Below are positions 16,156 through 44,062 of a stretch of 64,000 bases of DNA, piece after piece. The notes under the pieces are model-generated. The model had not been told where the DNA came from. It searched no databases and saw nothing but the letters and a program-made list of their open reading frames with translations. The translations under genes were made by a program, and so were the position numbers. Source of the stretch: Elusimicrobiota bacterium (lineage in GTDB: Bacteria > CG03 > SLGR01 > JAGXOG01). How positions within the stretch are numbered: position 1 is the first letter of the stretch; each line of letters starts with the position of its first letter. Location of the stretch: positions 25,899 to 89,898 of the forward strand of contig JBNJDT010000001.1 of NCBI GenBank assembly GCA_051745145.1, written 5' to 3'.

Positions 16156-16156
16156 C

Positions 16157-18895
16157 TTATCGTTTGCACAGTCTTCTGTAGTAACAAAACCGGCATTTAC
16201 TGCTTTTACTAGGGGCTTCTTGAAAATTGCCTTTTTTAATTTCCGCCACGGTACTCTTTAAAGTTTCTCTGGCCTTATGGGAAATCCGGGATGCTCTTTC
16301 CTGAGTAAAATCAATATTAACTTCCATTTTTTCGGCTTTTTTTCTCAATCTTAAAACAGTAAAGTATTGTGAATTTACCGCCCATTTATAAATGGGAATC
16401 TGAAAGTTCTCCCCTCTTTCTACAGCATTTAATAACCCCCTCTTTCCCGGAACTCTTTTACCCGTTTTATAATCAACTGTTCTCGTCTTACCGGAGGGGA
16501 GTTTATCTTCACGGTCAACTCTACCTCTTAATTTTATATTTTCCACTTCAGTATAAAATTTTTTTTCTGTATTTTTAACTTTAAAATTTTCCGCGCCCGG
16601 ACCGGTAAAATATTCTTCCACTATATTTAAAGTTTTTTTATACAAATTTCTACTTTCAAATTCCGAGTAAAACTCAAATCCCCCCCATATATCTTTTAGT
16701 TTATTTAAGGCTTCTTTTTTATTATCAATTCCCGCTTCATATAATTTTTGAAAAACTCCGTGAGCCACAATTCCAAATGATTTATATATAGAATCCGGTT
16801 CATTTAATCCCACTACATACCTATAAAAAAGTATACGGGGACATTTAACATAACTTTCTAAAAGTGTATAGGAGAATATATCCGGTAAATTATCTTTAAC
16901 TCTATTAAATAGCCGTTCATATTTATAATTTTTAACTTGTCTCAGTAAATTGAATTTTTCGCTAACATCTTCGTCTTCGGAGACCACATCTTCTGCTTTT
17001 TTTGTTATCCCGTCTTCAGCTATTTTAGAAATAAGATCAGAATCATTAATAATAAATTCTGATTCTCCGTGACTTACAGGCTGTAACTGTTCTTTCTCTA
17101 AAAATTCAGATCTGTTTTTGACATTCCCGGAATTTTCAAAATTATACCAGGTATATATTACTTCACTACTAGCCCGACTTTGAGCTATTTTGTAAAGCCT
17201 TTTTTCAAACTTATATCTTTGCTCAACATTAAAAACCGGTTTAATATTCAGGACTTTATAATCTTTAACTTTCAGCAGCGGATTTTCAAAAAACGGCCTG
17301 GGAAACGTATCTTCTACCATATCTATAAGATAAACTATTTTACATTCTAAATTTTTCGCCTGCTGAACCGTCATAATTTTTACTGCCTCTATATCTGGAA
17401 CATGGGGAATATTTAAATCTTTTCCAAATCCGCTAAGCAATTCATAGAAATTATCCATAAGCAATTTAAAAGTAAGTTTTTTTCCTTCCAAACTTTCATA
17501 ATGCTGTGAATAATCTTCTACAATCTTATAAAAATACCCATATAATTCAGCACCGAATTTATTATTAGCGGCTCTTTTTAAAAAACCGAATTTTTCCATA
17601 ATGTAATATATAAATTCTAAGGCATCCTTGTTTTTAGATTCCCTCCTAAGATTATCCATATATAAATTAAATTCTCTAAATTTTTCCGGATAATTTTCTT
17701 CCATAACAGTAATTAGGGATTTCGATTTCAAAATAGCTTTATTCTGTAATTTGTCTATTTTTTTATCTTCAATAATCCCAGATATTTTCAACATTCTTCT
17801 CAACTTAATACCCTGTAAATCTTCTTTACCATCTATATAAGCTAAAATTGACATCATCTCTATTACTTCCGGTTGTCTGAAAAAACCTATGCCCCCCAGT
17901 GTTACGCTATTTATACCCTGACTTTTTAAAGCCTGAGTAAAAAGTTCCATATTTTCTCCTACAGACCGGCCGATTATAATGATATCCGAAGGGGTTACCT
18001 CTTTTTTCTTTAACTTTATCGCAATATCGGCGGCAACTTTTTTAGCCTGTTCATCTCTTGTTGAGGCTTCAATAAATTTTTTTTCAAGCCCGGACTTACT
18101 TAATTTTTGTTTCATGGTTTTTATCTCAAAATCAAACTTTTGAGTTAACTTTTGTTTCAACTTATATGGCCGGGCACCCCGAAAACTATATACAGAAATT
18201 AAAGGCGATAAAGATATAAAAGCATGCTCTGCATTTTCTCCTATCCGGGAAATTATATCCCCCATTATTAAATCCATATCTTCGGTTTCATAACTTATAA
18301 TTATCTTAAATTGAAATAGATCGGGATGGTTTTTAATCATTTTCCGGGTACTCAAATGTAAATCCACAAAATCAGCGTAATTAAGCTTTTTAAGTTCCCG
18401 TTGGTAAAGTTGTAGTATCTTTTTTAATTCTAAATACTTTTGCTTTTGTGAACCTTTTGCATCTTTGATTTTTTCTGTCCAGTTAGGGTTTCTCTTGGCA
18501 ATATCTATAAAATTCGATATCTCTCTTACCAATCCCTCTTTATTCCCAGCAGTTTTAAAAAATCTTAAATTTAAATTTCTTTTTAAAAGAGTCCGGACAA
18601 TTAGTCTTTTTTCAAAATCCGTAATAATTTTAAAGCCGGGATTGAGATCTGTATAAAAATAATTTTCTCTTAAAACTTTTTTACAAAAAGAAGTACCACT
18701 TTCTATCCATAACTCACTGTAAGAATTTAAAATATTCTTTGCACACTCTTTAAAATTTTCTGCTGATTTTACAGAATTGGTTAAGATAAGTATATTCTCT
18801 GTTGAAATATTCCTTTTTAAAAAATTTTTTAACTTTGTTTTAAGATAACTTTTTTTGCCCGAGCGGGGAGGTCCCTGTATAAGTTCAAAGACCAT
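16157..18895 (-). CDS. AddB/RexB-like helicase-nuclease subunit with Cas4-type Fe-S nuclease domain
   Basis: 912 aa. Degenerate N-terminal P-loop (GPPRSGKKSYL). C-terminal RecB-like nuclease (RVDREDK...VDYKTGK) with CPRILF...CRFCYYRRLC. It sits directly upstream of the AddA-like gene with a 1-nt gap. Confidence 0.65.
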   Translation of the reverse strand: MVFELIQGPPRSGKKSYLKTKLKNFLKRNISTENILILTNSVKSAENFKECAKNILNSYSELWIESGTSFCKKVLRENYFYTDLNPGFKIITDFEKRLIVRTLLKRNLNLRFFKTAGNKEGLVREISNFIDIAKRNPNWTEKIKDAKGSQKQKYLELKKILQLYQRELKKLNYADFVDLHLSTRKMIKNHPDLFQFKIIISYETEDMDLIMGDIISRIGENAEHAFISLSPLISVYSFRGARPYKLKQKLTQKFDFEIKTMKQKLSKSGLEKKFIEASTRDEQAKKVAADIAIKLKKKEVTPSDIIIIGRSVGENMELFTQALKSQGINSVTLGGIGFFRQPEVIEMMSILAYIDGKEDLQGIKLRRMLKISGIIEDKKIDKLQNKAILKSKSLITVMEENYPEKFREFNLYMDNLRRESKNKDALEFIYYIMEKFGFLKRAANNKFGAELYGYFYKIVEDYSQHYESLEGKKLTFKLLMDNFYELLSGFGKDLNIPHVPDIEAVKIMTVQQAKNLECKIVYLIDMVEDTFPRPFFENPLLKVKDYKVLNIKPVFNVEQRYKFEKRLYKIAQSRASSEVIYTWYNFENSGNVKNRSEFLEKEQLQPVSHGESEFIINDSDLISKIAEDGITKKAEDVVSEDEDVSEKFNLLRQVKNYKYERLFNRVKDNLPDIFSYTLLESYVKCPRILFYRYVVGLNEPDSIYKSFGIVAHGVFQKLYEAGIDNKKEALNKLKDIWGGFEFYSEFESRNLYKKTLNIVEEYFTGPGAENFKVKNTEKKFYTEVENIKLRGRVDREDKLPSGKTRTVDYKTGKRVPGKRGLLNAVERGENFQIPIYKWAVNSQYFTVLRLRKKAEKMEVNIDFTQERASRISHKARETLKSTVAEIKKGNFQEAPSKSSKCRFCYYRRLCKR

Positions 18896-26778: not shown

Positions 26779-28083
26779 ATGTCAGATAAAAAAAATGTTA
26801 AAGAGACAATAGATAATAATAATCGCGAAAAATCAGAATGGAAAGACTATCAATGGCATTTAAAACATTCCATTAAAGATATAGAAACTTTTCAAAAATT
26901 AACGGGTATAGAATTTAACAAAGAGGAGAAAGCAAAACTAAAAAAAACTCTACAAAAATTTCCGCTTTCTATTACCCCTTATTATCTATCTTTAATTAAA
27001 AAAGAAAATTATAAAAAGGATCCCATATTTAAACAGGCTTTTCCCGATCCCAACGAACTTATAGTGACTAAATACGATATGGAAGATCCCCTCCATGAAG
27101 ATGAAGATAAGCCTGTACCGGAAATTACCCACCGGTATCCGGATAGAGTATTATTTACAATAAGTAACCAGTGTTCCATGTACTGCCGGCACTGTACCCG
27201 GAAAAGAAAAGTTGGGGATACAGATTATATTCCCTCTAAAAAAACTGTCAAAAAGGGAATTAAATATATTAAAGAGACCCCCCAGATCAGAGATGTAATT
27301 TTATCCGGCGGAGATCCCTTAATGCTTTCCGATGACTATCTGGACTGGATCCTTACTGAAATAACTAAAATACCCCACGTTGAAATGGTAAGGATCGGTA
27401 CCCGATTTCCGGCGGTTTTGCCATTCAGAATAACAGATAGTCTGGTTGAAATTTTAGCTAAACATCATCCCCTGTGGTTAAATACCCAGTTTAACCACCC
27501 GCGGGAGCTAACTTCCTCAGCTCAAAAGGCGCTGAAGAAACTGGCCGATGCCGGAATTCCTCTGGGAAATCAGTCGGTATTACTGGCCGGCGTTAATGAT
27601 TGTCCCAGGATAATTAAAAATCTCATGCATAAGTTGCTTCAAAACCGGGTTAAACCATATTATTTATACCAGTGTGATTTAACTGAAGGACTCTTTCATT
27701 TTCGGACCCCCGTAGGGAAAGGAATCGAAATAATCGAAAACATGATAGGTCACACAAGCGGACTGGCTGTACCGACTTATGTTATAGACGCTCCGGGAGG
27801 CGGGGGTAAAATACCGGTTATGCCAAATTACCTTATTTCCTGGTCAACCCGAAAAGTAGTCTTGAGAAATTATGAGGGAAATATAACTACTTATAAGGAA
27901 CCCGATTCTTACGAACCGGTATTTTGCGACCGTAATTGTGATGGCTGTAAACTTCAGCTGGATCTTGAAGGGGCTGCAGAATATAAATCCCGGGGAATAG
28001 TAAGCTTATTATCACACCATGATAACACTTCTTCCCTCATACCCGAAGGAACTGATAGAATAAATAGAAGAACAGATACCTAA
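26779..28083 (+). CDS. kamA: L-lysine 2,3-aminomutase (radical SAM)
   Basis: 434 aa. Radical-SAM [11 protein letters not shown] motif identical to KamA. Full KamA length, with conserved PLP-binding region. Confidence 0.85.
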
Positions 28084-28084
28084 T

Positions 28085-29413
28085 ATGACTGAAAAAATAC
28101 TCCTAATAGGAAGCTGGGCTAAAGAGCAGATAACAATAGAAAATATAAAACAAAGTTCTACTTACCGGGTATTCTGTTATCTAAGTACTAAAAATCCGGG
28201 AATACTTAAACTGGCCGACGGGTATAAAATCGGAAGTTTATCCGATAATAAAAACATAATTCAATACGCCCGGGATATCAAACCGGATTTAGTGCTAATT
28301 ACTACAGCCTCCCCCCTTTCAAATGGACTCACTGACGTACTCGAACGGGCCGGCTTTTCCGTATTTGCTCCCAGTAAACAGGCCGCCCGGCTGGAAATAG
28401 ATAAAGCTTACGCCAGAAATATTTTAAAAGAAATTGATATGGATATAGTTCCAAAATTCGGAGTTTTTAAGAAAATAGAAAAAGGCATAGAATTTGCCGG
28501 AAAATTAAACTGGGATGTAGCCGTTAAACCGGTGGGACTTACCGAAGGTCTGGGGGTAAAAGTTTCAGATGAACAGCTCAAAACCAAAGAGGATATAAAG
28601 AATTATATCCGGGAAATTTTAAATAAAAAAATAAGCGGAAAATCAAAAGTTCTTATAGAAAAAAAGTTAACCGGAGAAGAATTCACAATACAGTGCCTGG
28701 CATATGACGGAACAATTATTCCCACTCCGGCCGTTCAGGATTTTAAAAAATTAAAACCCAATGATAAAGGGCCAAATACGGCAAGCATGGGCTCTTACTC
28801 GGATACAAAAAAAATACTTCCCTTTTTAACACCAGAAGAATACCGATACTCTCTTAAAATAATTCAAAAGACTGTGAATTATTTTACTCAAAAAACAGGC
28901 AAAGATTGCCGGGGGTTTTTATACGGCCAGTTTATTCTAACCCCTTCGGGTATTAAAGTTGTGGAGTATAATTTCCGGCCCGGAGATCCGGAATGGATGA
29001 ATACTCTTACAGTTCTTAAAGATAATATAGCTGATAAAATTTTTAGTTTAATGAAAGGTAATGATATAAAATTAAATTTTAAGAATCGGGCCACCGTCTG
29101 CAAATATATAGTGCCCCGGGACTATCCCCGGAAATTATATCAGGAACTGGATATTGCCTTTCCTGAAGATAAATTAAAGGATTTGGGAGTAAATTTCTAT
29201 TACAGCGGGGGAATAGTTTCGGGGAACAGGTTAAATGTAGGTAAAGAAAGAGGAGTTGCTTTTATAGGTCAGGGGAATTCCATTGCTAAAGCAAATAACA
29301 GTGTAGAAAAAGCTATCTCATTGATAAAAGGTAATTTTAGATACAGATGCGATATCGGCTCTGAAAAATTAATTAATTCTAAGAAAAAGTATGTGAGGGA
29401 GGCAATAAGATAA
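28085..29413 (+). CDS. PurD-like ATP-grasp ligase (divergent; the canonical GSGGREHA motif is replaced by GSWAKEQI)
   Basis: 442 aa. GARS-like N domain, ATP-grasp B domain (VAVKPVGLTEGLGVKV) and C domain. It is 2 nt downstream of kamA and 3 nt upstream of the GNAT gene. Confidence 0.6.
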   Translation: MTEKILLIGSWAKEQITIENIKQSSTYRVFCYLSTKNPGILKLADGYKIGSLSDNKNIIQYARDIKPDLVLITTASPLSNGLTDVLERAGFSVFAPSKQAARLEIDKAYARNILKEIDMDIVPKFGVFKKIEKGIEFAGKLNWDVAVKPVGLTEGLGVKVSDEQLKTKEDIKNYIREILNKKISGKSKVLIEKKLTGEEFTIQCLAYDGTIIPTPAVQDFKKLKPNDKGPNTASMGSYSDTKKILPFLTPEEYRYSLKIIQKTVNYFTQKTGKDCRGFLYGQFILTPSGIKVVEYNFRPGDPEWMNTLTVLKDNIADKIFSLMKGNDIKLNFKNRATVCKYIVPRDYPRKLYQELDIAFPEDKLKDLGVNFYYSGGIVSGNRLNVGKERGVAFIGQGNSIAKANNSVEKAISLIKGNFRYRCDIGSEKLINSKKKYVREAIR

Positions 29414-29415
29414 AT

Positions 29416-29919
29416 ATGAAAAATTCAGATTTTAATATTCGTGAAGCTAAAGAAGAAGAATTTTTAAAATTGCATAAATTTGTGGCCAACTGCCCTCCCC
29501 TGGAACAGTATCCGGTTCACTTATACAAATTAACGCTCAGGTATTTTCGAAATACGTGTTTTATCGCAGAATTAAACGGCAATTGGGCTGGTTTTCTTAC
29601 AAGTTTTATCTCCCAGGTAAATCCGGAAAATTTATTTATGTGGCAGATAGGCATTCATCCTGATATGCAGGGTAAAGGACTTGGCAAAAAAATTTTAAAA
29701 GCAGCAGAAAAAAAATTAAAGAAAAGAGGAATCAAAAAAATAGAATTAACCGTGGATCCTGAAAACAGTCCTTCCCAGAAATTATTTACCGGCATGGGGT
29801 ATAAAAACATAAGTAAAGATGAAGGGGAATGTGTAAATATTAATAATACACCGGCAGTTAAAGATTTTTACAAACCGGGCAGACATTTTACGGTTTTTCA
29901 AAAAAAATTAAATATTTAG
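29416..29919 (+). CDS. GNAT family N-acetyltransferase
   Basis: 167 aa. Acetyl-CoA-binding motif QIGIHPDMQGKGLGKKIL. Last gene of the kamA operon. Confidence 0.75.
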   Translation: MKNSDFNIREAKEEEFLKLHKFVANCPPLEQYPVHLYKLTLRYFRNTCFIAELNGNWAGFLTSFISQVNPENLFMWQIGIHPDMQGKGLGKKILKAAEKKLKKRGIKKIELTVDPENSPSQKLFTGMGYKNISKDEGECVNINNTPAVKDFYKPGRHFTVFQKKLNI

Positions 29920-29939: not shown

Positions 29940-31640
29940 TTATCTATCAGTATATAGATATCTTTTTATTTTGCGGGTAGTTGTTTTCTGAAATTCTTCC
30001 TGCTGAATTTTAAAATATTTCACTTTCTTAAAAGCCGGTAAGTTTTCAGTATATTTTTTTATTTCTTGATTTATTATATTATAAATGGACTCTTTACTCT
30101 CTTCAACTTTCTTCTCGCTAAAATACTTATCTAAATTTTCATGATCCGGATAAATAAGAGCAGCTACTTTCTCATTTTTATTATCCATTTCCTTACCATA
30201 CACCATTGCTTCACTTATATAATCGCTGTGTTGTAACTTTGCTTCAATTTCTTCGGGGTATACATTTTTACCCGCCGCAGTAACAATAACGTTTTTAGAC
30301 CGGCCCTTAATGTACAGACAATTATTATCATCGATATAACCTATATCGCCAGTTTTGAGCCAGCCGTTATCCATAACTTTTCGAGTAGCTCTATCATTTT
30401 TAAAATAACCGCTCATTACGTTATCCCCCTTTGCTTCAATCTCCCCGTAACCTTTTTCGTTTTTATTTTTTATTCTAAGTTTAACTCCGTCAATTGGTTT
30501 GCCTACCGATTCTAAGCCGGCAGGAACTCTGTAATTTACGGTTAAAACCGGTGCCGTTTCTGTTAAACCATACCCCTGTACAAACTCTATCCCCAGCATA
30601 TCAAAAAAATCGCCGGTTGAGGGTACCAGCGGAGCTCCGCCGGAAACCATTAACCTGAGTGTACTGAGACCCGCTTTCTGCCTAACATTTTTAAATACCG
30701 CAGAACCGGCATTAATATTAACTTTATTTAAAACTTTATTAACCCCTTTAAAAGTTGTGAAAATTACCCGTTTTAAAATAGAAGAATTTTTTACTTTTCT
30801 GTTTATTGCATTTTTAAAAGAATCAAAAAGAGCCGGGACCCCAAGCATTACAGTAACTTTTTGGTCTTTCATATACCGGACAATTTTAGTGGCCCGAAGA
30901 GTATTAGAAAAAACTACTTTACTTCCCACCGCTAACGGGATTAACATGGTACCTGCGGCCGGGAATGCATGGAATAACGGCAAAATAGCTACAAATACAT
31001 CGTCTTTTTTAAATTTTATTATAGAAGGTATAGCATCTATCTGATGAAGTAAATTACCGTGAGTAAGAGAAACGCCTTTCGGAGACCCGGTTGTACCGGA
31101 AGTATATAAGATCGCCGCCAGATCATTCTTATCTCTTTTTTCTAAACCCGGATAATTGTCTATACCTTTTATATTAGTTTCGTTTTTAAGAATATTTTTT
31201 AAGCTCTTCTCCCCGTTATAGGGCCGGGATGTATCAGTTACTATAGCTTCTTTTATATTTAAACCCGATCTTATCTCCAGGTTTAAGCCATCATAAATTT
31301 TTGAATCCGTAAATAGAATATCGGCCTTGCTATGCCTCAGAAAATGGATATTATCACTGGCATGTAATTTAGTATCCAGCGGCACTACGGGAATACCTAA
31401 AAAATGGGCGGTAAAATATACTACTGTCCAGTAATGAGAATTTTCAGCTAACAGGGCTATCTTAGAATTATCATCTATTATACCGGCTTTTAATAAATAG
31501 CCGGAAAGCTTTAATACATCCTCCCTGAAATCCCCGTAAGTATATTTTTTATACCCATCATCGACCGGTTCTACATGGGCAATGCCGTCATTATAGAATT
31601 CTGTCCTATCAAGAAAAAATTGAGCTAAATTTTTATACAT
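29940..31640 (-). CDS. AMP-dependent synthetase/ligase (long-chain acyl-CoA synthetase-like)
   Basis: 566 aa. AMP-binding motif YTSGTTGSPKGV and a C-terminal adenylate-forming domain. Its start abuts the phoH2 stop. Confidence 0.8.
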   Translation of the reverse strand: MYKNLAQFFLDRTEFYNDGIAHVEPVDDGYKKYTYGDFREDVLKLSGYLLKAGIIDDNSKIALLAENSHYWTVVYFTAHFLGIPVVPLDTKLHASDNIHFLRHSKADILFTDSKIYDGLNLEIRSGLNIKEAIVTDTSRPYNGEKSLKNILKNETNIKGIDNYPGLEKRDKNDLAAILYTSGTTGSPKGVSLTHGNLLHQIDAIPSIIKFKKDDVFVAILPLFHAFPAAGTMLIPLAVGSKVVFSNTLRATKIVRYMKDQKVTVMLGVPALFDSFKNAINRKVKNSSILKRVIFTTFKGVNKVLNKVNINAGSAVFKNVRQKAGLSTLRLMVSGGAPLVPSTGDFFDMLGIEFVQGYGLTETAPVLTVNYRVPAGLESVGKPIDGVKLRIKNKNEKGYGEIEAKGDNVMSGYFKNDRATRKVMDNGWLKTGDIGYIDDNNCLYIKGRSKNVIVTAAGKNVYPEEIEAKLQHSDYISEAMVYGKEMDNKNEKVAALIYPDHENLDKYFSEKKVEESKESIYNIINQEIKKYTENLPAFKKVKYFKIQQEEFQKTTTRKIKRYLYTDR

Positions 31641-32981
31641 TTACAGTAATTCCGCCGCCAGACCGGCCAGATTACTCCTCTCGCTTTTAGATAAGGTAAC
31701 ATGCGCAAAAATATCCTGTCCTTTAAATCTTTCCGCCAGATATGTCAACCCGTTAGAAGCAGAATCCAGATAGGGGTTATCTATCTGGTAGGGATCCCCG
31801 GTAACAACCACTTTAGTATTTTTGCCGGCTCTGGAAACTATAGTCTTTATTTCCAGTGGAGTCAAATTCTGTGCTTCGTCAATTATCATAAACTGCTGGG
31901 GGATACTTCGCCCTCTTAAATACGTCAACGCCTCAATCTCTATTTTTCCGGTATCAAAAAGGTTATCCACTACATCCGAAGGTTTTAAATTTACATTGTT
32001 TTTCTTACTCTTACCGAAAGTTTTACCACTTTCTTCAACTAAAAATTCCAAGTTATCGTAAAAAGCTCCCATCCAGTTGGCAAGTTTTTCTTCTTTTGAA
32101 CCGGGTAGATAACCGATATCTTTTCCCATGGGAACAACTGGTCTGGATATCATAACCCGCCGGTATTTTTTTTCATCAAAAGTTAAATGCAGACCGCAGG
32201 CAAGAGCTATTAAGGTTTTTCCCGTGCCGGCCACCCCCAGCAAAGTTACCAGTTCAATATCGTCATTTAACATTGCTTCAAAAGCAAACTGCTGTTCTAC
32301 GTTTAAAGCTTTCAGACCCCACGGTCGACTCTGTGCGTGAGTAAGCTTTACTATAAGATCCTCCCGGGGCGAATACCGTCCCAGACCTGTCTTTTTATTA
32401 TCAGACTGTGATCTTAATTTTATAAATTCCTGTGGCGAAAGCTGTTTCTCTATATCCGCGGGAATGGGCATCTTCTTCTGGCTGAGAAATTCATCCACAA
32501 GGTTATCTTTTACTTCTAATTCTCGCCACCCGGAATATAATTCTTCAAACCGGACCTTAGCTTTTTCAAAGTCCTGAACTTCTAAACCCAGCACCTCTGC
32601 TTTTACCCGCATATTAATATCTTTAGATATAAATATTACATTTTTACCGCTCTCTTTTAGGCCCAGGGCCACGGCAAGTATCTCATTATCAGCCTTTTTT
32701 ACCAGGGAAGTGGGAATATCGGCTTTTTTATCTGCTTCAATTCTTATGATTCCCCCTTTATCGGTCTTTACGCCTTCAAAAAGTTTGCCCTTATTTCTTA
32801 AATTATCCAATCTCCTGGTTATCAGGCGGGCATTCCGGCCCCGTTCATCCGATAATTTTTTTAATTTGTCAAGCTCCTCTATTACTGTAAGAGGTAAAAC
32901 AACTTCATTATCTTCAAAGTTATAAAGACTTCCCGGGTCATGGATTAAGACATTGGTATCCAGTACAAATGATTTATTCAT
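31641..32981 (-). CDS. PhoH2: N-terminal PIN domain fused to PhoH-like ATPase
   Basis: 446 aa. PIN (VLDTNVLIHDP...D), then Walker A GVAGTGKTLIA and Walker B MIIDEAQN of the PhoH family. Confidence 0.8.
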   Translation of the reverse strand: MNKSFVLDTNVLIHDPGSLYNFEDNEVVLPLTVIEELDKLKKLSDERGRNARLITRRLDNLRNKGKLFEGVKTDKGGIIRIEADKKADIPTSLVKKADNEILAVALGLKESGKNVIFISKDINMRVKAEVLGLEVQDFEKAKVRFEELYSGWRELEVKDNLVDEFLSQKKMPIPADIEKQLSPQEFIKLRSQSDNKKTGLGRYSPREDLIVKLTHAQSRPWGLKALNVEQQFAFEAMLNDDIELVTLLGVAGTGKTLIALACGLHLTFDEKKYRRVMISRPVVPMGKDIGYLPGSKEEKLANWMGAFYDNLEFLVEESGKTFGKSKKNNVNLKPSDVVDNLFDTGKIEIEALTYLRGRSIPQQFMIIDEAQNLTPLEIKTIVSRAGKNTKVVVTGDPYQIDNPYLDSASNGLTYLAERFKGQDIFAHVTLSKSERSNLAGLAAELL

Positions 32982-33916
32982 AAGATATCACCTAACTCCT
33001 CTTTATCCAATTCATAAAATTTACACCATTTACAAAACCGCTTTTGATCGGTCAGAGGGAATTTCTCCTTGGCACAGGGGATATTTTTATCGGGATCTTT
33101 TAAATACTTTTTCATATCCTCTATACTCCGGGAAACTTTCTCTTTTGCCTCTTCCAGAGATTTTTCGGTTATCTTTACTTCTCTTGTACTGCCGTTTAAA
33201 AGATATTCCACTCTTCCCTTCATAAGATCGGCCGAAATACCGAATTTATTTTTAATATAAAGGGCGTATAAATTAAGTTGATCGTCGTGTTTATCGTATT
33301 CTTTACCGGTTTTCCAATCCACTACATACCAATCTCCCGCCTCATCGGTATAAACTAAATCCGGAATGGCGTATACCGGTGTACCCTTAAAGTTGAATGT
33401 ATCCATATTTTCCACCATCTCCAAACTGCAAGACTGCTTTACCAAGTCATTAATAGACGGTGATTCATAAAGATTATCCACTGCCTTATATAGTCTGTTT
33501 TTTATCTTTTTTATTAAATTATCCGACAGTCCATTGCCATAGTAAAACTCCTGCAGCATAAAATATTGATTGGGACTGGCCTTCCACTTATGCGGTTCCC
33601 GGGACTCTTTCCAGGCCTGATTAAGCAGATACCTTACCTTGTCTATTAACTTTTTTTTGTCCGGATATTCTCCGGTACTATCTACAATTTTACAAGCATA
33701 TTCAGCTACTTCATGAACGGCACTTCCCAGTATAAGATATATTCCGGTAAGTTTCTTAAGCCGGTAGGCCAGTTTACACTCTTCGGGGGCACTGTCCTCC
33801 CACCCGTTGTGAGCTAAATAATAATTGTAATAGTATTTTCTTTTACATTCCTGAAAAGTATTATTCCTTGAAGACGACCAGCTCCACGGAGGATATTTTG
33901 TTCTTTGATATGTCAT
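32978..33916 (-). CDS. Cas4-like PD-(D/E)xK nuclease with 4-Cys (Fe-S) cluster
   Basis: 312 aa. N-terminal Cys (QECKRKYYY), nuclease core IPDLVY...WYVVDWKTG, C-terminal CAKEKF...CKWCKF. Its stop overlaps the phoH2 start by 4 nt. Confidence 0.65.
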   Translation of the reverse strand: MTYQRTKYPPWSWSSSRNNTFQECKRKYYYNYYLAHNGWEDSAPEECKLAYRLKKLTGIYLILGSAVHEVAEYACKIVDSTGEYPDKKKLIDKVRYLLNQAWKESREPHKWKASPNQYFMLQEFYYGNGLSDNLIKKIKNRLYKAVDNLYESPSINDLVKQSCSLEMVENMDTFNFKGTPVYAIPDLVYTDEAGDWYVVDWKTGKEYDKHDDQLNLYALYIKNKFGISADLMKGRVEYLLNGSTREVKITEKSLEEAKEKVSRSIEDMKKYLKDPDKNIPCAKEKFPLTDQKRFCKWCKFYELDKEELGDIL

Positions 33917-34041
33917 TTATTACCTTCCCGTATTATATATTTATTTACACTTAACATTTAATTCCTAATTATAGCAATTATTTTAAAAAATCTCAATTTT
34001 GCTCTAAATATATAAACTGATTTTTAAAATATAATATAATT

Positions 34042-38761: not shown

Positions 38762-41700
38762 ATGATTTCCAAACTTAATTTTTTCCGGCACTTAACAGAT
38801 TTTCCAATCCGAATTCTTACTTGTAAGAAATTATCGCTAATTTTCTTGCTTTTAGCTGGCATTGTCGCCACCCCTGCACACGCTCAAGAACCTAAGCTGG
38901 TAGGGGCCCAGACCTATTCTGCGGCCGGCGTGCTAAACAGCGTCGCTACCGATTCCAATGATTACATATATTCTGCGGGAAAAAAGATTCCCGGGGACTA
39001 TGAGGCCACCACTGACTGGGTATATCTTAAAACCAGTTACCAAAAAGGCTGGTACTGGTGGTGGTATGACCGGTGGATAAATCACTTTACTCTGGTAAAA
39101 GATTTTTCCGGTGGTTTAAACGACGAGGCAACCTCTATAACTTTAGGGGATACCTATGCATACATGACCGGATTTGTCGAAGAATTACATACCTGGACTT
39201 ATGAATATGAAGATTTAGATGGAAACCAGCAGCAAGAAGAGGTCAGTATGCCCCTTCCCCAGGCTTACCTGTGGCAATACACCACAGGAGGCAGTCAAAA
39301 CAGGATGATTTCTCTACCAGGATACACCCAGTCCGAATTTATGGGCAGCAGTGTGGACAGCAGCAACAATATTTATACCGGGTATTACGCCGGCGAAATA
39401 ACAGATGACGACCCTGAAAACTTACAGTTTGAATACGAGATAGGTTTAATAAGTTTTTCATCCGGCGGTTCAGAAATTGACCGCCATCAATACGAGACCG
39501 GCACCGGCAGTTCAAACGATATGGAAAGTATCGACATTAATGAAACTTTTGTGCGGGGAAATTATGTCTATGTAGTCGGGGAACAGTCGGGCGATATGAC
39601 AAGAAAAGCTTTTGTCGCCAAACACGATATAAACACCCTAGATGAAGTCTGGTTTAAAACCGTTGGCGACTTTGATCTGGATGCCCAGGATAGTTCGGGG
39701 ATGGATGTAGCTGTAGATTCTAACGATAATGTATTTTTTACGGTTTCCTACTCCGATTATGCCCGGCTTATTAAACTTAATTCCGACGGTTCTTTAAACA
39801 GCCATAAAAAGGAGCAGGCATCAGGCACTACCCGCATGGGAGGATTAGCTTTAAAAGATGCCGATAATGAGATATATGTTTCCGGTGAATACGACGGTAA
39901 GGCAGCATTTTTTAAATACGATACCGACCTTAACCAACAATATATTTATGATGTATCCCAGGATGAGCCCAATGCTTACCCGACTGATGTCTCTATAAGC
40001 GCAAATAATGATATAGTTCTGGTCGGTACAGACGAAGTCGGGGACGAATCCCGGCTATGGGTAGCAAAATACAGGGAATTTGAATCTACCCAATTAATGC
40101 AACTGGAAGTTGACCCCGGATATTTAGAACCCTCATTCCAGGTGGAACAATCCACCTATGATGTTACGGTAAGCTCTGATGTAAATACAATTGATGTAAC
40201 CGCCACCCTGGCCGATGAAAGTTCTTCCTTAACTGTTGACGGTAAAAGTGCTGAAAGCGGAGAACCTGAAACAGTTGATCTTAACAATTCCACGGGTACT
40301 ACAACTGAAATAGATGTAGTAATTACAGATAATGACAGTAATACAGAGACTTACACTCTTTATGTATACCGATCCGGAGAAATACTTAATGACAGCGCCA
40401 AACTGGGTAATTTAACCGTAGATCACGGATTATTAAATCCGGGGTTTGCATCCGGTACTACCGAATACGATGTCGATGTAGCCTGGGATGTCGCAAGCAT
40501 AGGCGTAACTCCCACCCTTTCCGGGGATAATCCAAACGCCGTAATAGAAGTTAACCATAAACGGATAAACGACAATACTACTGAAGAAATCCCCCTTAAT
40601 GAGGGCGGTACGACCACGGATATAGAAGTTTTAGTTATTTCAGAGGACGGCAGTGCCCAGACAACATATACTATTACTGTCAACAGAGATGCGCCGTCGC
40701 AGGATGCGGATCTAAATGATCTGGACCTAAATCCCGGAAATTTAGAGCCGGGCTTTGATTCCCAGGATACAGACTACAACGTAAAGGTAAGTTCTGATGT
40801 TACAGCTACAGATGTAACTGCTACCCTATCCGATTCAGACGCTTCACTAACAATTGATGATAATCAGGCTACCTCCGGGAACCCGGAAACTATAACCTTA
40901 GGTGGGCCGGGATCAGAGACGAAAATAGATGTCATGGTTACCGCCGCCGACAATGAAACTACAAAAACTTATACCGTATATGTAAAAAGATCAGAACAGA
41001 TGCTTAATGACAATGCCAACTTAGATTATCTTATGATTACCCCCGGGGAGTTAGAACCGGGGTTTGATTCATCTACTCTTGACTATACTGTAGATGTCGC
41101 CCATGATGTTGAAGAAGTTGATTTAACGGCTTACCCTGAAGATATCCAGAACGCTTTTGTTTCAATTGACGGTACGCGCGCTGAAAACGGTACAAAAACT
41201 ATTAATCTTAATTCAGCAGGCTCTTCTACTGTAATAGATATTACCGTAAGCGCAGAAGACGGTGAAACCGAAAAATCTTATACCGTGACTGTAAATAGAG
41301 CTGCAGCTCCGCCATCTGATAACGCAAATTTATCCGGTTTAACGATATCCCCGGGTACACTTGACCCCGTATTTGACAGTTACATCACCGACTATGACGT
41401 TGAAGTGGCTTCTGATATCGGCAATGTCGATGTTTCTGCCACGGCGGACGATACAAATGCAACTCTAACCATTGACGGAGATAGCGTTAGCAGTAAAAAC
41501 ATAACTCTTAATCCTGCCGGGGAAACAAAAAATATAGATATTGTAGTTACCGCAGAAAATGGTTCCACTAAAGAATATTCCATACTGGTAAAAAGACTGG
41601 CTCCACCCTCCGGTGATGCCGACCTCGATGATCTGGACTTGGACCCTGGCAACTTAAAGCCGGCATTTTCTGCTGGTGAGACCAGCTACAACGTAAAGGT

Positions 41701-44062
41701 CAGTTCCGACGTTGAAAATACCGATGTAACAGCTTTTCTATCGGACAAAAACGCCGGGCTTAAAATTAACGGGGATCCTGTTTCAGGCGGCGAATCTGAG
41801 AGAGTTTATCTCAGTGGAGATGGCTCCACCACCACCATAACAATTAATGTTACTGCCGAAGACGGTACTACTACAAAAACTTATACTGTAGATGTATACC
41901 GACTGCACCGGTACGATGACCCTCTCAATGATGATACCGACCTGGAAGATATGTCAGTTAACCCCGGAGAATTAGAACCGGAATTCACTTCTTATACCAC
42001 AAACTACGAAGCCGAGGTGGCCCACGATGTTACCGAAGTAATTTTAACTTCTACCCGCTCCGATACAAACGCAATAGCCGAAATCAACGGCAGCCGGATA
42101 GATAGCGGCGAGCATAAAACAATTGCTCTTAATGACGAGACTACTACCACCGAAATAGATATTAAAGTTACAGCTGAGGACGGTGATACCCAAAAGACTT
42201 ATACCGTTACTGTCGAAAGAAATCCGTCTACTGATGCACGTCTAAATAATTTATCTATCGATCCGGGCAGTCTTTCACCGAGTTTCAGTACCGGAACTTT
42301 TAGCTACACCTCTAACGTGGGACCGGCAACAGGAACAGTAAACATAACCGCCGGACTATCCGATACTAATGCCTCTTTAAAAATTAATGGCTTTGCCGCT
42401 ACTAATAATCAGGCTGAAACTGTTTCTTTAAATCCAAAAGATTCAACAACTACTATAGATATTGTAGTTACAGCTGAAGACGAATCTACGACAAAAACTT
42501 ATACTGTTAAAATATACCGGGATCCTTCCGATAATACAGACCTTACCGAACTGGATCTGCATCCCGGAAATTTAGATTCTCCCTTTGATAATTCTACTAC
42601 TTTGTATACCGCAAAAGTAAGTTCTAATGTAGAGGAGACTGAAATAACCGCTACCCTTTCCGATGAAAACGCTGGTTTAAAAATTGACAACGCAACAGCT
42701 TCAAGCGGCGAAGCTGAAACTATCGAACTGGGAGTAAAAGGAACGACAACAACAGTATATACCACTATTACCGCTCAAGACGGGGTTTCCCAGGCTACTT
42801 ACACAGTAAAAGTTTACAGGTCAGAAAAAATACTTAACGACAACGCCTCACTTACAAATATGTATGTCGTACCCGGATATTTAGAGCCTAATTTTTCAGC
42901 CGGTATTACAGATTATGATGTAAATTTAGATTACGACGATGACGCTATCAGTATCACCCCTGTTCTATCAGATAAAAAAGCTATAGTAAATATAAATGAT
43001 AGTAGAGTTGAAAGCGGTAGCCAGAAGACGGTCAACTTAAACAACCCCGGATCGGAGACTGTAATAGATATTGTAGTTACAGCCGAAGACGGTTTTACAA
43101 AACGCAGCTACAAAATTACAGTAACAAGAGCGTCCGGACCCGGCTACCGGGCCCTCTTATCAGCCCTAAATTTAAATCCGGGAAATTTAGACAAACAATT
43201 TAATAAAAATATTACCGGTTATAAAACTAAGGTAAGCTCCAATGTCACAGCTATTGATATTACCGCTACTCTTTTAGATGAAAATGCTTCTATGTCTATT
43301 ATCGGGGATGAAACTGACAGCGGAACACCAAAAACCGTATCAATCGGCCGGAAAGGTTCAACGACAACTGTCGAAATACTGGTTACATCCGCCGACGGCG
43401 AAAACGAAAAGATTTACACTGTCAGTATAGTCCGGTCCACTGTAATGCTTAATGACAATGCCTTTTTAATAAACCTACTGATTACCCCCGGGGAATTAGA
43501 ACCGCTTTTTTCTAAAAATGCCACTAAGTATGAAGTTGAAGTAGAATACAACGTCGGCCAGATTCAAATTATCCCCTTTATTGCCGATAAAAAAGGAATT
43601 ATAGAAATTAATAATAACAGAACCGCAGACGGTAAACCGGAAACTATTGCTCTGGGGTCCCCGGGTACAGAAACTAAAATAACGGCCACGGCAACTGCCG
43701 AAAATGGCGCCAGCTCAAAAGAGTATCAAATCACTGTACTTAAAGGTATCTTATCGGAAGTGGAAGACCCCTACGATGAGGTGTACGTGGTGGGAGGTAA
43801 AGAAGGATTTATTAATCTGAATACCGGTGAAAAACCTAAAATTTATTTTACCGCCCAAGAAAGCGGAGAAGTAAGATATACTATCTACACCCTTAATGCA
43901 GATCTGGTTTATGAAGATGTAATGTATACCGGCAAAGGGGAAAATTATATTGAATGGGATGTAACTAATTTCAGGAATAATACCGTAGAACCGGGAATTT
44001 ATATTATACGGCTGGAAGGCCCCGGTTTTGAAGAACAGAGGAAAATACCTATTCTCAAATGA
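38762..44062 (+). CDS. Giant secreted cell-surface adhesin: signal peptide, SBBP-type beta-propeller, 13 tandem cadherin-like beta-sandwich repeats, T9SS-type (Por/FlgD-Ig-like) C-terminal sorting domain
   Basis: 1766 aa. N-terminal signal peptide (LLLAGIVATPAHA). SBBP-like propeller blades (e.g. SSGMDVAVDSNDNVFFTVSYSD). About 13 repeats of 95-100 aa of the form 'DLxxLxxxPGxLxPxFxxxxxxYxxxVxxxVxxxxxTAxxxDxxAxxxIxG...TYTVxVxR'. C-terminal about 80 aa (RYTIYTLNADLVYEDVMYTGKGENYIEWDVTNFRNNTVEPGIYIIRLEGPGFEEQRKIPILK) matches the secretion-system C-terminal sorting domain pattern. Confidence 0.75.
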   Translation: MISKLNFFRHLTDFPIRILTCKKLSLIFLLLAGIVATPAHAQEPKLVGAQTYSAAGVLNSVATDSNDYIYSAGKKIPGDYEATTDWVYLKTSYQKGWYWWWYDRWINHFTLVKDFSGGLNDEATSITLGDTYAYMTGFVEELHTWTYEYEDLDGNQQQEEVSMPLPQAYLWQYTTGGSQNRMISLPGYTQSEFMGSSVDSSNNIYTGYYAGEITDDDPENLQFEYEIGLISFSSGGSEIDRHQYETGTGSSNDMESIDINETFVRGNYVYVVGEQSGDMTRKAFVAKHDINTLDEVWFKTVGDFDLDAQDSSGMDVAVDSNDNVFFTVSYSDYARLIKLNSDGSLNSHKKEQASGTTRMGGLALKDADNEIYVSGEYDGKAAFFKYDTDLNQQYIYDVSQDEPNAYPTDVSISANNDIVLVGTDEVGDESRLWVAKYREFESTQLMQLEVDPGYLEPSFQVEQSTYDVTVSSDVNTIDVTATLADESSSLTVDGKSAESGEPETVDLNNSTGTTTEIDVVITDNDSNTETYTLYVYRSGEILNDSAKLGNLTVDHGLLNPGFASGTTEYDVDVAWDVASIGVTPTLSGDNPNAVIEVNHKRINDNTTEEIPLNEGGTTTDIEVLVISEDGSAQTTYTITVNRDAPSQDADLNDLDLNPGNLEPGFDSQDTDYNVKVSSDVTATDVTATLSDSDASLTIDDNQATSGNPETITLGGPGSETKIDVMVTAADNETTKTYTVYVKRSEQMLNDNANLDYLMITPGELEPGFDSSTLDYTVDVAHDVEEVDLTAYPEDIQNAFVSIDGTRAENGTKTINLNSAGSSTVIDITVSAEDGETEKSYTVTVNRAAAPPSDNANLSGLTISPGTLDPVFDSYITDYDVEVASDIGNVDVSATADDTNATLTIDGDSVSSKNITLNPAGETKNIDIVVTAENGSTKEYSILVKRLAPPSGDADLDDLDLDPGNLKPAFSAGETSYNVKVSSDVENTDVTAFLSDKNAGLKINGDPVSGGESERVYLSGDGSTTTITINVTAEDGTTTKTYTVDVYRLHRYDDPLNDDTDLEDMSVNPGELEPEFTSYTTNYEAEVAHDVTEVILTSTRSDTNAIAEINGSRIDSGEHKTIALNDETTTTEIDIKVTAEDGDTQKTYTVTVERNPSTDARLNNLSIDPGSLSPSFSTGTFSYTSNVGPATGTVNITAGLSDTNASLKINGFAATNNQAETVSLNPKDSTTTIDIVVTAEDESTTKTYTVKIYRDPSDNTDLTELDLHPGNLDSPFDNSTTLYTAKVSSNVEETEITATLSDENAGLKIDNATASSGEAETIELGVKGTTTTVYTTITAQDGVSQATYTVKVYRSEKILNDNASLTNMYVVPGYLEPNFSAGITDYDVNLDYDDDAISITPVLSDKKAIVNINDSRVESGSQKTVNLNNPGSETVIDIVVTAEDGFTKRSYKITVTRASGPGYRALLSALNLNPGNLDKQFNKNITGYKTKVSSNVTAIDITATLLDENASMSIIGDETDSGTPKTVSIGRKGSTTTVEILVTSADGENEKIYTVSIVRSTVMLNDNAFLINLLITPGELEPLFSKNATKYEVEVEYNVGQIQIIPFIADKKGIIEINNNRTADGKPETIALGSPGTETKITATATAENGASSKEYQITVLKGILSEVEDPYDEVYVVGGKEGFINLNTGEKPKIYFTAQESGEVRYTIYTLNADLVYEDVMYTGKGENYIEWDVTNFRNNTVEPGIYIIRLEGPGFEEQRKIPILK
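40100..43740 (+). repeat. Approximately 13 tandem in-frame about 290-nt repeats encoding cadherin-like beta-sandwich domains (inside the adhesin CDS)
   Basis: A periodic protein motif (PG.LEP.F......Y.V.V......I.V.A...D..A...I.G .. T.TY.V.V.R) recurs every 95-100 aa. The nucleotide copies are diverged rather than identical. Confidence 0.7.

Follow-up and report, generated by a model that had tools for sequence, protein, structure and literature searches.

In one clade of the Elusimicrobiota, a nuclease of the Cas4 superfamily is encoded immediately upstream of PhoH2, a protein that joins a PIN RNase domain to a PhoH-type ATPase, and the two genes usually overlap. The pair was studied in a 64,000-nt stretch of contig JBNJDT010000001.1, from a metagenome-assembled genome (MAG) of this phylum; the whole stretch is called the window here. 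The object of study was a run of three minus-strand open reading frames (ORFs), for the nuclease, PhoH2 and an acyl-CoA ligase, examined through an ORF listing and a base-level reading of the junctions. The gene geometry, the domain identities, the intact catalytic residues, the conservation of the pair across the clade and its housekeeping context are observed here. The explanation that is favoured, tentatively and at a little under even probability, is that the nuclease and PhoH2 cooperate in housekeeping or stress nucleic-acid metabolism of their own cell, as products of a lineage-specific operon. A separate linkage, the PhoH2–PHP–DUF2779 trio of Endomicrobiia, supports this. Both combinations appear undescribed in the literature searched; their components are of known kinds.

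The Three-Gene Locus

The features of the locus are as follows.

32978..33916, minus strand: orphan Cas4-family (ACE2-like) PD-(D/E)XK nuclease, 312 amino acids (Pfam, PADLOC, alignment, AlphaFold2 (AF2)/Foldseek)
31641..32981, minus strand: PhoH2, PIN_4 RNase plus PhoH P-loop ATPase/helicase, 446 amino acids (Pfam, NCBIfam, PDB, alignment A3)
29940..31640, minus strand: AMP-forming acyl-CoA ligase, long-chain fatty-acid-CoA ligase-like, 566 amino acids (Pfam AMP-binding, 9e-72)
32978..32981, minus strand: ATGA stop/start overlap of the nuclease and PhoH2 genes, 4 nt, nuclease TGA over PhoH2 ATG (base reading …cttATGAat…)
33968..33996, minus strand: sigma-70-like promoter match, TTGAGA-17-TATAAT with upstream TG (extended -10), 11/12, a consensus match only

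The three ORFs are consecutive, and their start codons are upheld by N-terminal alignment with homologs. A Shine-Dalgarno-like motif, AGGTGA, is found a few nucleotides 5' of the PhoH2 ATG, within the nuclease gene. At the other junction the PhoH2 TAA directly abuts the ligase ATG, with zero gap. Both junctions had been reported in a preliminary description of this DNA, and the ORF listing and base reading bear them out, as Pfam does its domain calls (nuclease, PIN plus PhoH, AMP-ligase). The promoter-like site has the top score of a 4.6-kilobase (kb) scan and lies within the 125-nt gap 5' of the nuclease gene. No convincing terminator was found in that scan between this site and the end of the ligase gene, and no RNA element was found by Rfam in or near the locus. 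The geometry fits a three-gene operon of nuclease, PhoH2 and acyl-CoA ligase, which would be co-transcribed.

The Nuclease

The nuclease matches Pfam PDDEXK_1 (5.5e-19) and Cas_Cas4 (9e-7). It falls in the PF12705-type branch. Its length exceeds that of Cas4 by about 100 amino acids, and its N-terminal helical region is like that of ACE proteins. With Cas4 and solo-Cas4 proteins it shares the PD-(D/E)XK core, the QxxxY motif, the Fe-S motif except for its fourth Cys, and a 'solo'-like vertical evolution. It differs from the Cas4 of CRISPR systems in that it reaches 26.6 bits on the CRISPR-associated Cas4 equivalog model TIGR00372, where the cut-off is 65, and thus falls outside the equivalog; no cas genes were found among the scanned ORFs of the window.

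A closer relationship is found with the ACE nucleases. ACE1 is a 4Fe-4S single-stranded DNA endonuclease that forms a heterodimer with a long-A prokaryotic Argonaute (pAgo) encoded just downstream (PMC12094033). Members of the ACE2 clade, with a mean length of 313 amino acids, come mostly from Bacillota; 92 of 115 are in genomes that lack a pAgo, and their role is open (PMC12094033). The window nuclease matches the PADLOC model Aga_Cas4-like_Nuc (PDLC02406) over its full length (E 3.3e-28, 97 bits, positions 2-305 of 308), and all 17 family members match it too. Full-length homology to ACE is therefore present, but a co-encoded pAgo is not, as judged from the window ORFs of at least 400 amino acids. 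A genuine pAgo-linked member is found on the cyanobacterial plasmid CP150887.1 (L152:5016-8311), where an ACE-type nuclease gene has a 4-nt overlap with a downstream pAgo_II gene. The product of the latter is a 794-residue 'hypothetical protein' that Pfam does not recognize and PADLOC identifies as pAgo_II (E 1e-160). That nuclease scores 211 bits on PDLC02406 and the window nuclease about 97, because of which the window protein is treated as part of an ACE2-like sister clade. The plasmid pair, which is of the APACE type, is unannotated, and its flanks contain an IS630 element, DEAD-box helicases and the toxin-antitoxin pair SocA/MazF.

Structure prediction leads to the same relatives. An AF2 model built from a 17-sequence alignment has a pLDDT of 92.3, and its best Foldseek matches are the ACE1 structures 9iab/9iac from Chroococcidiopsis and Microcystis (E 7e-9, TM 0.55-0.63), followed by the nuclease domain of AdnA (4e-7), Dna2 (2e-5) and Cas4 (8e-4). 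A sequence-profile search of the PDB agrees, again with ACE1 as the best match. The modelled fold is Cas4/AddB/Dna2-like.

The catalytic residues, which the preliminary description had left to be checked, are all kept: D186, D200-W-K202, Q213 and Y217 (D…DxK and QxxxY) are invariant in 35 family sequences. So are C24, C295 and C298. Of the four-Cys Cas4 signature that had been described, these three cysteines hold, but the canonical fourth (C-x2-C-x5-C), present in most relatives, is replaced by Asp304 in the window nuclease. An additional cysteine, C281, which the preliminary description had counted in the signature, is lineage-specific and occurs together with D304 only in the window nuclease and its nearest relative, P0002. 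The D304/C281 pattern may represent ligand swapping or ligation of the Fe-S cluster by Asp. Two other family members, P0010 and P0067, have D304 with a different extra Cys and D304 alone, respectively.

Relatives with 38-45% identity are found in Halobacillus, Paenibacillus, Limnochordia and Chloroflexota. No relative was found in the phage collection searched, and phages and plasmids yielded no copies of the window nuclease's clade, only distant relatives. A family member with 34% identity on the Bacillus cereus plasmid AP022879 (L151:4998-7055) adjoins a HIRAN-domain protein. HIRAN binds DNA 3' ends, and this is possibly another DNA-end-processing context for the nuclease family.

PhoH2 and the Acyl-CoA Ligase

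PhoH2 is very widespread, and its biological role has been described as poorly characterised (PMC7390352). The combination of ATP-dependent 5'->3' RNA unwinding with sequence-specific RNase activity is known only for mycobacterial enzymes (PMC7390352). In the window PhoH2, Pfam detects an N-terminal PIN_4 domain (1.3e-33) and a C-terminal PhoH domain (6e-47); the match to PhoH in PDB entry 3b85 is at 3e-25. Invariant residues in alignment A3 include D8, E35/E36, D98 and D121 of the PIN domain, the Walker A motif G249-GKT256 (GxxGxGKT) and the Walker B residue D368. Judged by this alignment, both the PIN and the ATPase motifs are intact and the PIN-PhoH architecture is present. Against the NCBIfam model NF053827 (RNA5-3helPhoH2) the protein aligns over its full length with 286 bits, below the cut-off of 680, which indicates an unchanged architecture in a lineage divergent from that equivalog. 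A suspected clade-specific insertion in nuclease-paired PhoH2 proteins proved to be only a variable loop, also present in the unpaired protein of locus L134.

The ligase matches NCBIfam subfamily models only under their cut-offs. It adjoins PhoH2 solely in the sub-clade formed by the window and loci L001 and L002. Its abutment with PhoH2 is in line with a link of COG1875 to fatty-acid metabolism that was drawn long ago from gene neighbourhoods (Kazakov 2003, as cited in PMC1079782). An acyl-ACP desaturase is encoded 5' of the PhoH2 of Tsukamurella.

Conservation of the Pair

Loci of the nuclease family were collected from genomes (80) and metagenomes (49), most of them from MAGs. The metagenome scan gave no loci with the single nuclease sequence and all 49 when it was repeated with the clade alignment A2. 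PhoH2 lies immediately 3' of the nuclease in every locus where nuclease identity is at least 51%. These are 10 unique loci of one Elusimicrobiota clade (the window, L001, L003-L007, L086, L088 and L136; L085 and L087 are duplicates). The -4 overlap, as ATGA or GTGA, is kept in seven of the ten (the window, L001, L004, L005, L007, L088 and L136) although the junction bases have diverged; in the others the gap is 9 or 97 nt.

The ancestral order in the clade is radical-SAM, DUF2344, RNase E/G, nuclease, PhoH2, PCC (DUF296), L21, L27, ProB, ProA and NadD. In the sub-clade of the window the ligase lies 3' of the pair, in place of PCC-L21-L27-ProB. The 5' neighbours also vary, and include TatD, a Zn-ribbon protein, Yip1 after RNase G and an rve transposase, among others; the pair has therefore outlived several rearrangements. 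The rve-family transposase/integrase gene (L136:3501-4928) is inserted just 5' of the nuclease-PhoH2 genes in an otherwise conserved housekeeping block.

A recurrent partner of the nuclease family outside Elusimicrobia was also sought. Clustering of neighbours gave only lineage-specific synteny of genes without a functional relation to the nuclease, with transporters, MscS, alanine dehydrogenase, ThiD and NAD-binding proteins beside the unpaired nucleases.

A Second Linkage in Endomicrobiia

The PhoH2 gene of Endomicrobiia and related Elusimicrobia has, only a few bases 3' of it, a gene for a PHP-domain protein, and next comes one for a DUF2779 protein of about 485 amino acids. The PhoH2–PHP–DUF2779 order was found in five of the six DUF2779 loci examined, at DUF2779 identities that reach as low as 48%.

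L081:5001-8704 (Endomicrobium proavitum CP009498): PhoH2–PHP–DUF2779
L137:5001-8657: PhoH2–PHP–DUF2779
L139:5001-8629: PhoH2–PHP–DUF2779
L140:2787-6458: PhoH2–PHP–DUF2779
L142:2792-6449: PhoH2–PHP–DUF2779

Both flanks of the trio differ at each locus (RecA is next in 2/5), and at least 11 further contigs of coinciding length in the DUF2779 and PhoH2 match lists point the same way. DUF2779 has the canonical Cas4 signature in invariant form (C15, D98, E112-x-K114, C204-x2-C207-x5-C213). At the N-terminus it folds like Cas4 (Foldseek, type I-C Cas4, E 9e-5), and its C-terminal part is a DEDD exonuclease. The family, known to combine a Cas4-like domain with a DEDD exonuclease, is quasi-essential in JCVI-syn3.0 (PMC13621843, PMC3985635), which suggests a role in core metabolism. 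Its kinship with the window nuclease is remote: an hhalign comparison (E 0.002) covers the catalytic core and Cys motif only.

Common to both arrangements is a tight linkage of PhoH2 with an Fe-S nuclease of the Cas4 superfamily, in the same phylum and in a chromosomal, non-defence context. They differ in the family of the nuclease, in the position of the nucleases of the trio, 3' of PhoH2, and in the extra PHP phosphoesterase and the fused DEDD exonuclease. No DUF2779/PHP trio genes were found in the window or in the sampled loci of the nuclease-paired clade. In the PhoH2 tree the nuclease-paired and DUF2779-paired proteins fall into separate clades, with partnerless lineages branching alongside. 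The two partners were therefore acquired independently. The sample of PhoH2 neighbourhoods outside Elusimicrobiota is small, about 13 lineages, and the chance of two Cas4-superfamily adjacencies in about that number is of the order of 1e-3, a rough post-hoc figure without a formal test. The preliminary description had held such systems to be undescribed for PhoH2, and the literature searched agrees: work on Cas4 phylogenomics, ACE or DUF2779 makes no mention of PhoH, no paper connects PhoH2 with a Cas4-type nuclease, and no description of the PhoH2–PHP–DUF2779 cluster was found.

Genomic Context

The window is an ordinary stretch of chromosome. It contains a dcw cell-wall cluster, the RNase P RNA, tRNAs, TatD, PurC, PEPCK, MscS, dCTP deaminase, a lysine-2,3-aminomutase operon and a large cadherin-repeat protein. 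GC content is uniform, 0.35-0.38 around the locus. A scan of the window ORFs detected no CRISPR, Argonaute, restriction system or mobile-element signature, and no PIWI/pAgo protein is present among all those of at least 400 amino acids. The large ORFs adjoining sampled members of the nuclease family likewise include no pAgo; they encode SNF2, P-type ATPase, M1 peptidase and Ski2-like helicase proteins, among others, with no PIWI domain. In PADLOC-DB v2 the nuclease matches the Aga nuclease model alone, PhoH2 gives marginal P-loop matches (Nhi, AbiO, RecD) and the ligase none; for the nuclease-PhoH2 pair there is no system-level match. With its housekeeping neighbours, even GC and retained synteny with RNase G, L21, L27 and ProB, the locus has the character neither of a defence island nor of a mobile element, and its inheritance looks vertical.

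Several other features of the window were observed. Two adjacent proteins of 970 and 912 amino acids (13243-18895, minus strand) each contain UvrD-helicase and PDDEXK_1 domains. From these domains they are identified as an AddAB/AdnAB-type helicase-nuclease for double-strand breaks, and would give this genome a separate, canonical machine with Cas4-like nucleases. A packed operon (26779-29919, plus strand) encodes lysine-2,3-aminomutase, a PurD-like ATP-grasp protein (GARS_N/A/C) and a GNAT acetyltransferase. The operon looks like an ablAB beta-lysine pathway to which an ATP-grasp ligase has been added, and it converges on the acyl-CoA ligase gene, from which a 20-nt gap separates it. Farther away, a 1766-residue protein with 12 cadherin-like beta-sandwich repeats (38762-44062, plus strand) is followed, with a 4-nt overlap, by a 324-residue protein without a Pfam match.

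Neighbours or Partners

A number of observations weigh against a working partnership of nuclease and PhoH2. In most lineages each family usually occurs solo. None of about 115 nuclease loci at 50% identity or less (Bacillota, Chloroflexota, Gemmatimonadota and others) has PhoH2 within 6-8 kb, and PhoH2 is far commoner than the nuclease, with at least 8000 matches. A PD-(D/E)XK neighbour is absent from all eight full-length PhoH2 loci on annotated replicons (Bacillota, Bacteroidota, Pseudomonadota, Actinomycetota and Deferribacterota). The nuclease is also absent beside PhoH2 in other Elusimicrobiota (L084, L138) and in Caldisericota. In the latter (L082:1053-5526 and L083) the genes after PhoH2 encode PhoU_div, a PHO4 phosphate transporter and a Metallophos/5'-nucleotidase protein, a context that, from these genes, would be one of phosphate scavenging. 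A 351-residue protein encoded 5' of Caldisericota PhoH2, again with a 4-nt overlap, was suspected of being the nuclease and proved unrelated by BLASTP; the overlap geometry is therefore not specific to the pair. Within the clade itself, L134 encodes a PhoH2 that is 71% identical (in a clade of 68-84%) and lies without a nuclease between a YkuD-domain gene and groES-groEL. The reverse is found as well. At L002:8936-9418 PhoH2 is reduced to a 160-residue in-frame deletion remnant, with residues 1-59 fused to 346-440, from which Walker A and the greater part of the PIN domain are missing; the nuclease 5' and the ligase 3' are intact. This deletion could in principle be an assembly artefact. At L008:8001-9498 (JAIVZN010000001.1) a nuclease of 50% identity is found in Elusimicrobia-like synteny (radical SAM, DUF2344, RNase E/G, nuclease, PCC, L21, L27, ProB) with no PhoH2. 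The 'Deltaproteobacteria' label of that MAG conflicts with the synteny and may be a binning error. From L002, L008 and L134, the pair is dispensable. Tight junctions are common in the window, too: 16 of 41 co-directional neighbour pairs are separated by 3 nt or less, including unrelated pairs such as TatD/PurC and PurC/PEPCK, and 4 of 41 have the same -4 overlap. Junction geometry alone is thus no more than chance in this genome, whereas the recurrence of the pair in related genomes exceeds chance. Flanking synteny is largely kept in the clade as well, so that the adjacency could be inherited rather than selected. The preliminary description had allowed that the pairing might be private to this genome or the nuclease a solo or catalytically defective repair enzyme. 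The pairing is kept across one Elusimicrobiota clade and is absent in other phyla; the nuclease family does occur mostly alone, but with its catalytic residues kept.

These observations can be accommodated if the two genes are merely neighbours by descent, a solo Cas4-family repair or housekeeping nuclease and PhoH2 that are co-transcribed in a compact genome without cooperating. This is a real possibility, though one that we lean against. It would explain why the nuclease remains whole, every catalytic residue included, at loci with a deleted PhoH2 or none, and why PhoH2 persists without it in the same clade; PCC-L21-L27-ProB synteny is about equally conserved, and for solo-Cas4 genes vertical evolution, as in ordinary genes, is the general rule (PMC5704561). 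It fits less well with a pair that outlasts several changes of both flanks and keeps its -4 overlap while the junction diverges, with the independent and much more robust link between PhoH2 and the Cas4 superfamily in Endomicrobiia, or with ACE relatives that are obligate partners of a downstream gene product. The last of these also invites comparison with APACE (Bobadilla Ugarte et al. 2025, PMC12094033). The window nuclease resembles its nucleases in the D…DxK and iron-staple Cys motifs, fold and length (312 amino acids against the ACE2 mean), and in a gene 5' of its partner's with a 4-nt overlap, as in L152; PhoH2 occupies in the window exactly the position of pAgo there. In an anti-phage or anti-plasmid system of this kind, PhoH2 would replace pAgo beside an ACE-type nuclease, and the pair would degrade invading nucleic acid or trigger abortive infection. 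Defence systems commonly contain PIN and P-loop helicase domains, and MaACE1 alone modestly lowers plasmid content (PMC12094033). Nevertheless, the partner is PhoH2 and not Argonaute, the nuclease is 15% identical to the ACE1 structures and has Asp in place of the fourth Cys, and the score on the Argonaute-associated model is less than half that of the true member. The locus is chromosomally fixed between RNase G and ribosomal-protein genes, with no sign of mobility or of a defence island, and most ACE2 proteins themselves lack a pAgo. A defence role is distinctly unlikely on this evidence. The preliminary description had compared the pair with defence or nucleic-acid-surveillance systems as a two-nuclease plus ATPase module, and had proposed the PADLOC search that matched the nuclease only; what survives is the module itself, a conserved, coupled pair with catalytic residues kept in both proteins, and not its assignment to defence. 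A toxin-antitoxin arrangement is very improbable. Mycobacterial PhoH2 (Andrews & Arcus; PMC7390352) has the same two-domain architecture, with PIN acidic and Walker residues kept, and is co-transcribed with an overlapping upstream gene, phoAT; the window PhoH2 is likewise overlapped by its upstream gene, with co-transcription predicted. The nuclease could then stand in place of phoAT and restrain the PIN RNase, and the loss of PhoH2 with the upstream gene kept (L002, L008) is the direction that such a system tolerates. However, phoAT is a short antitoxin-like ORF, whereas the nuclease is a 312-residue enzyme with invariant catalytic residues and no DNA-binding or antitoxin-like domain in Pfam; the window PhoH2 lies well under the 680 cut-off, and L134 and all more distant PhoH2 genes evidently tolerate the absence of a nuclease.

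A Possible Division of Labour

Cooperation in the cell's own nucleic-acid metabolism remains the favoured explanation. It is supported because the pair and its overlap persist through flank turnover, because an independent PhoH2–PHP–DUF2779 trio exists in a sister class, and because the ACE relatives of the nuclease are partner-dependent enzymes. We infer co-transcription, physical or pathway cooperation, and the substrates. An orphan ACE2-like nuclease, with D…DxK in its active site and a putative 4Fe-4S 'iron staple', would have become the upstream, translationally coupled partner of PhoH2 in a chromosomal, vertically inherited operon of nuclease, PhoH2 and acyl-CoA ligase with its own promoter, confined to one Elusimicrobiota clade. 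The two enzymes would share nucleic-acid substrates, which under stress or when nutrients are limiting would undergo turnover, quality control or repair. PhoH2 might load on a 5' single-stranded tail, unwind it 5'->3' and cut RNA by its PIN ring, and the Cas4-type nuclease might trim the exposed single-stranded (DNA) ends. The shared substrate is conjecture, since PhoH2 is a documented RNA enzyme (PMC7390352) and ACE and Cas4 proteins are DNases, and this too counts against the proposal.

Functionally, such a pair would be like a split Dna2/AdnAB-type helicase-nuclease and not a mobile anti-phage system. In Dna2, AddAB and AdnAB, too, a P-loop translocase is joined to an iron-staple nuclease of the Cas4 type, and the order of nuclease and then 5'->3' motor in the window mirrors Dna2. 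The window proteins, however, are two polypeptides, and the motor is of the PhoH type (reportedly hexameric and RNA-specific) with a PIN RNase, not an SF1 DNA helicase. The pair is not a member of this group, and the resemblance is functional only.

A bolder version is unlikely. In Elusimicrobiota, Cas4-superfamily nucleases would have PhoH2 as their dedicated partner, in two forms that evolved independently. In the window PhoH2 would hold Argonaute's place in APACE, so that helicase/RNase and Fe-S DNase make up a machine, so far undescribed, that surveys RNA-DNA hybrids or foreign nucleic acids or interferes with them. If the link reflects genomic inheritance only, the locus is an ordinary lineage-specific operon. 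If PhoH2 is a dedicated partner, this would give it its first defined cellular pathway. Likewise open is the role of the many nucleases of the ACE2 and solo Cas4 types whose genomes have no Argonaute or CRISPR (PMC12094033, PMC5704561). The nuclease and PhoH2 constitute a defined protein pair for co-expression, and a recurrent operonic link, in two forms within one phylum, leads to a testable hypothesis, in which the two form a split helicase-nuclease with single-stranded tails or RNA-DNA hybrids as its targets.

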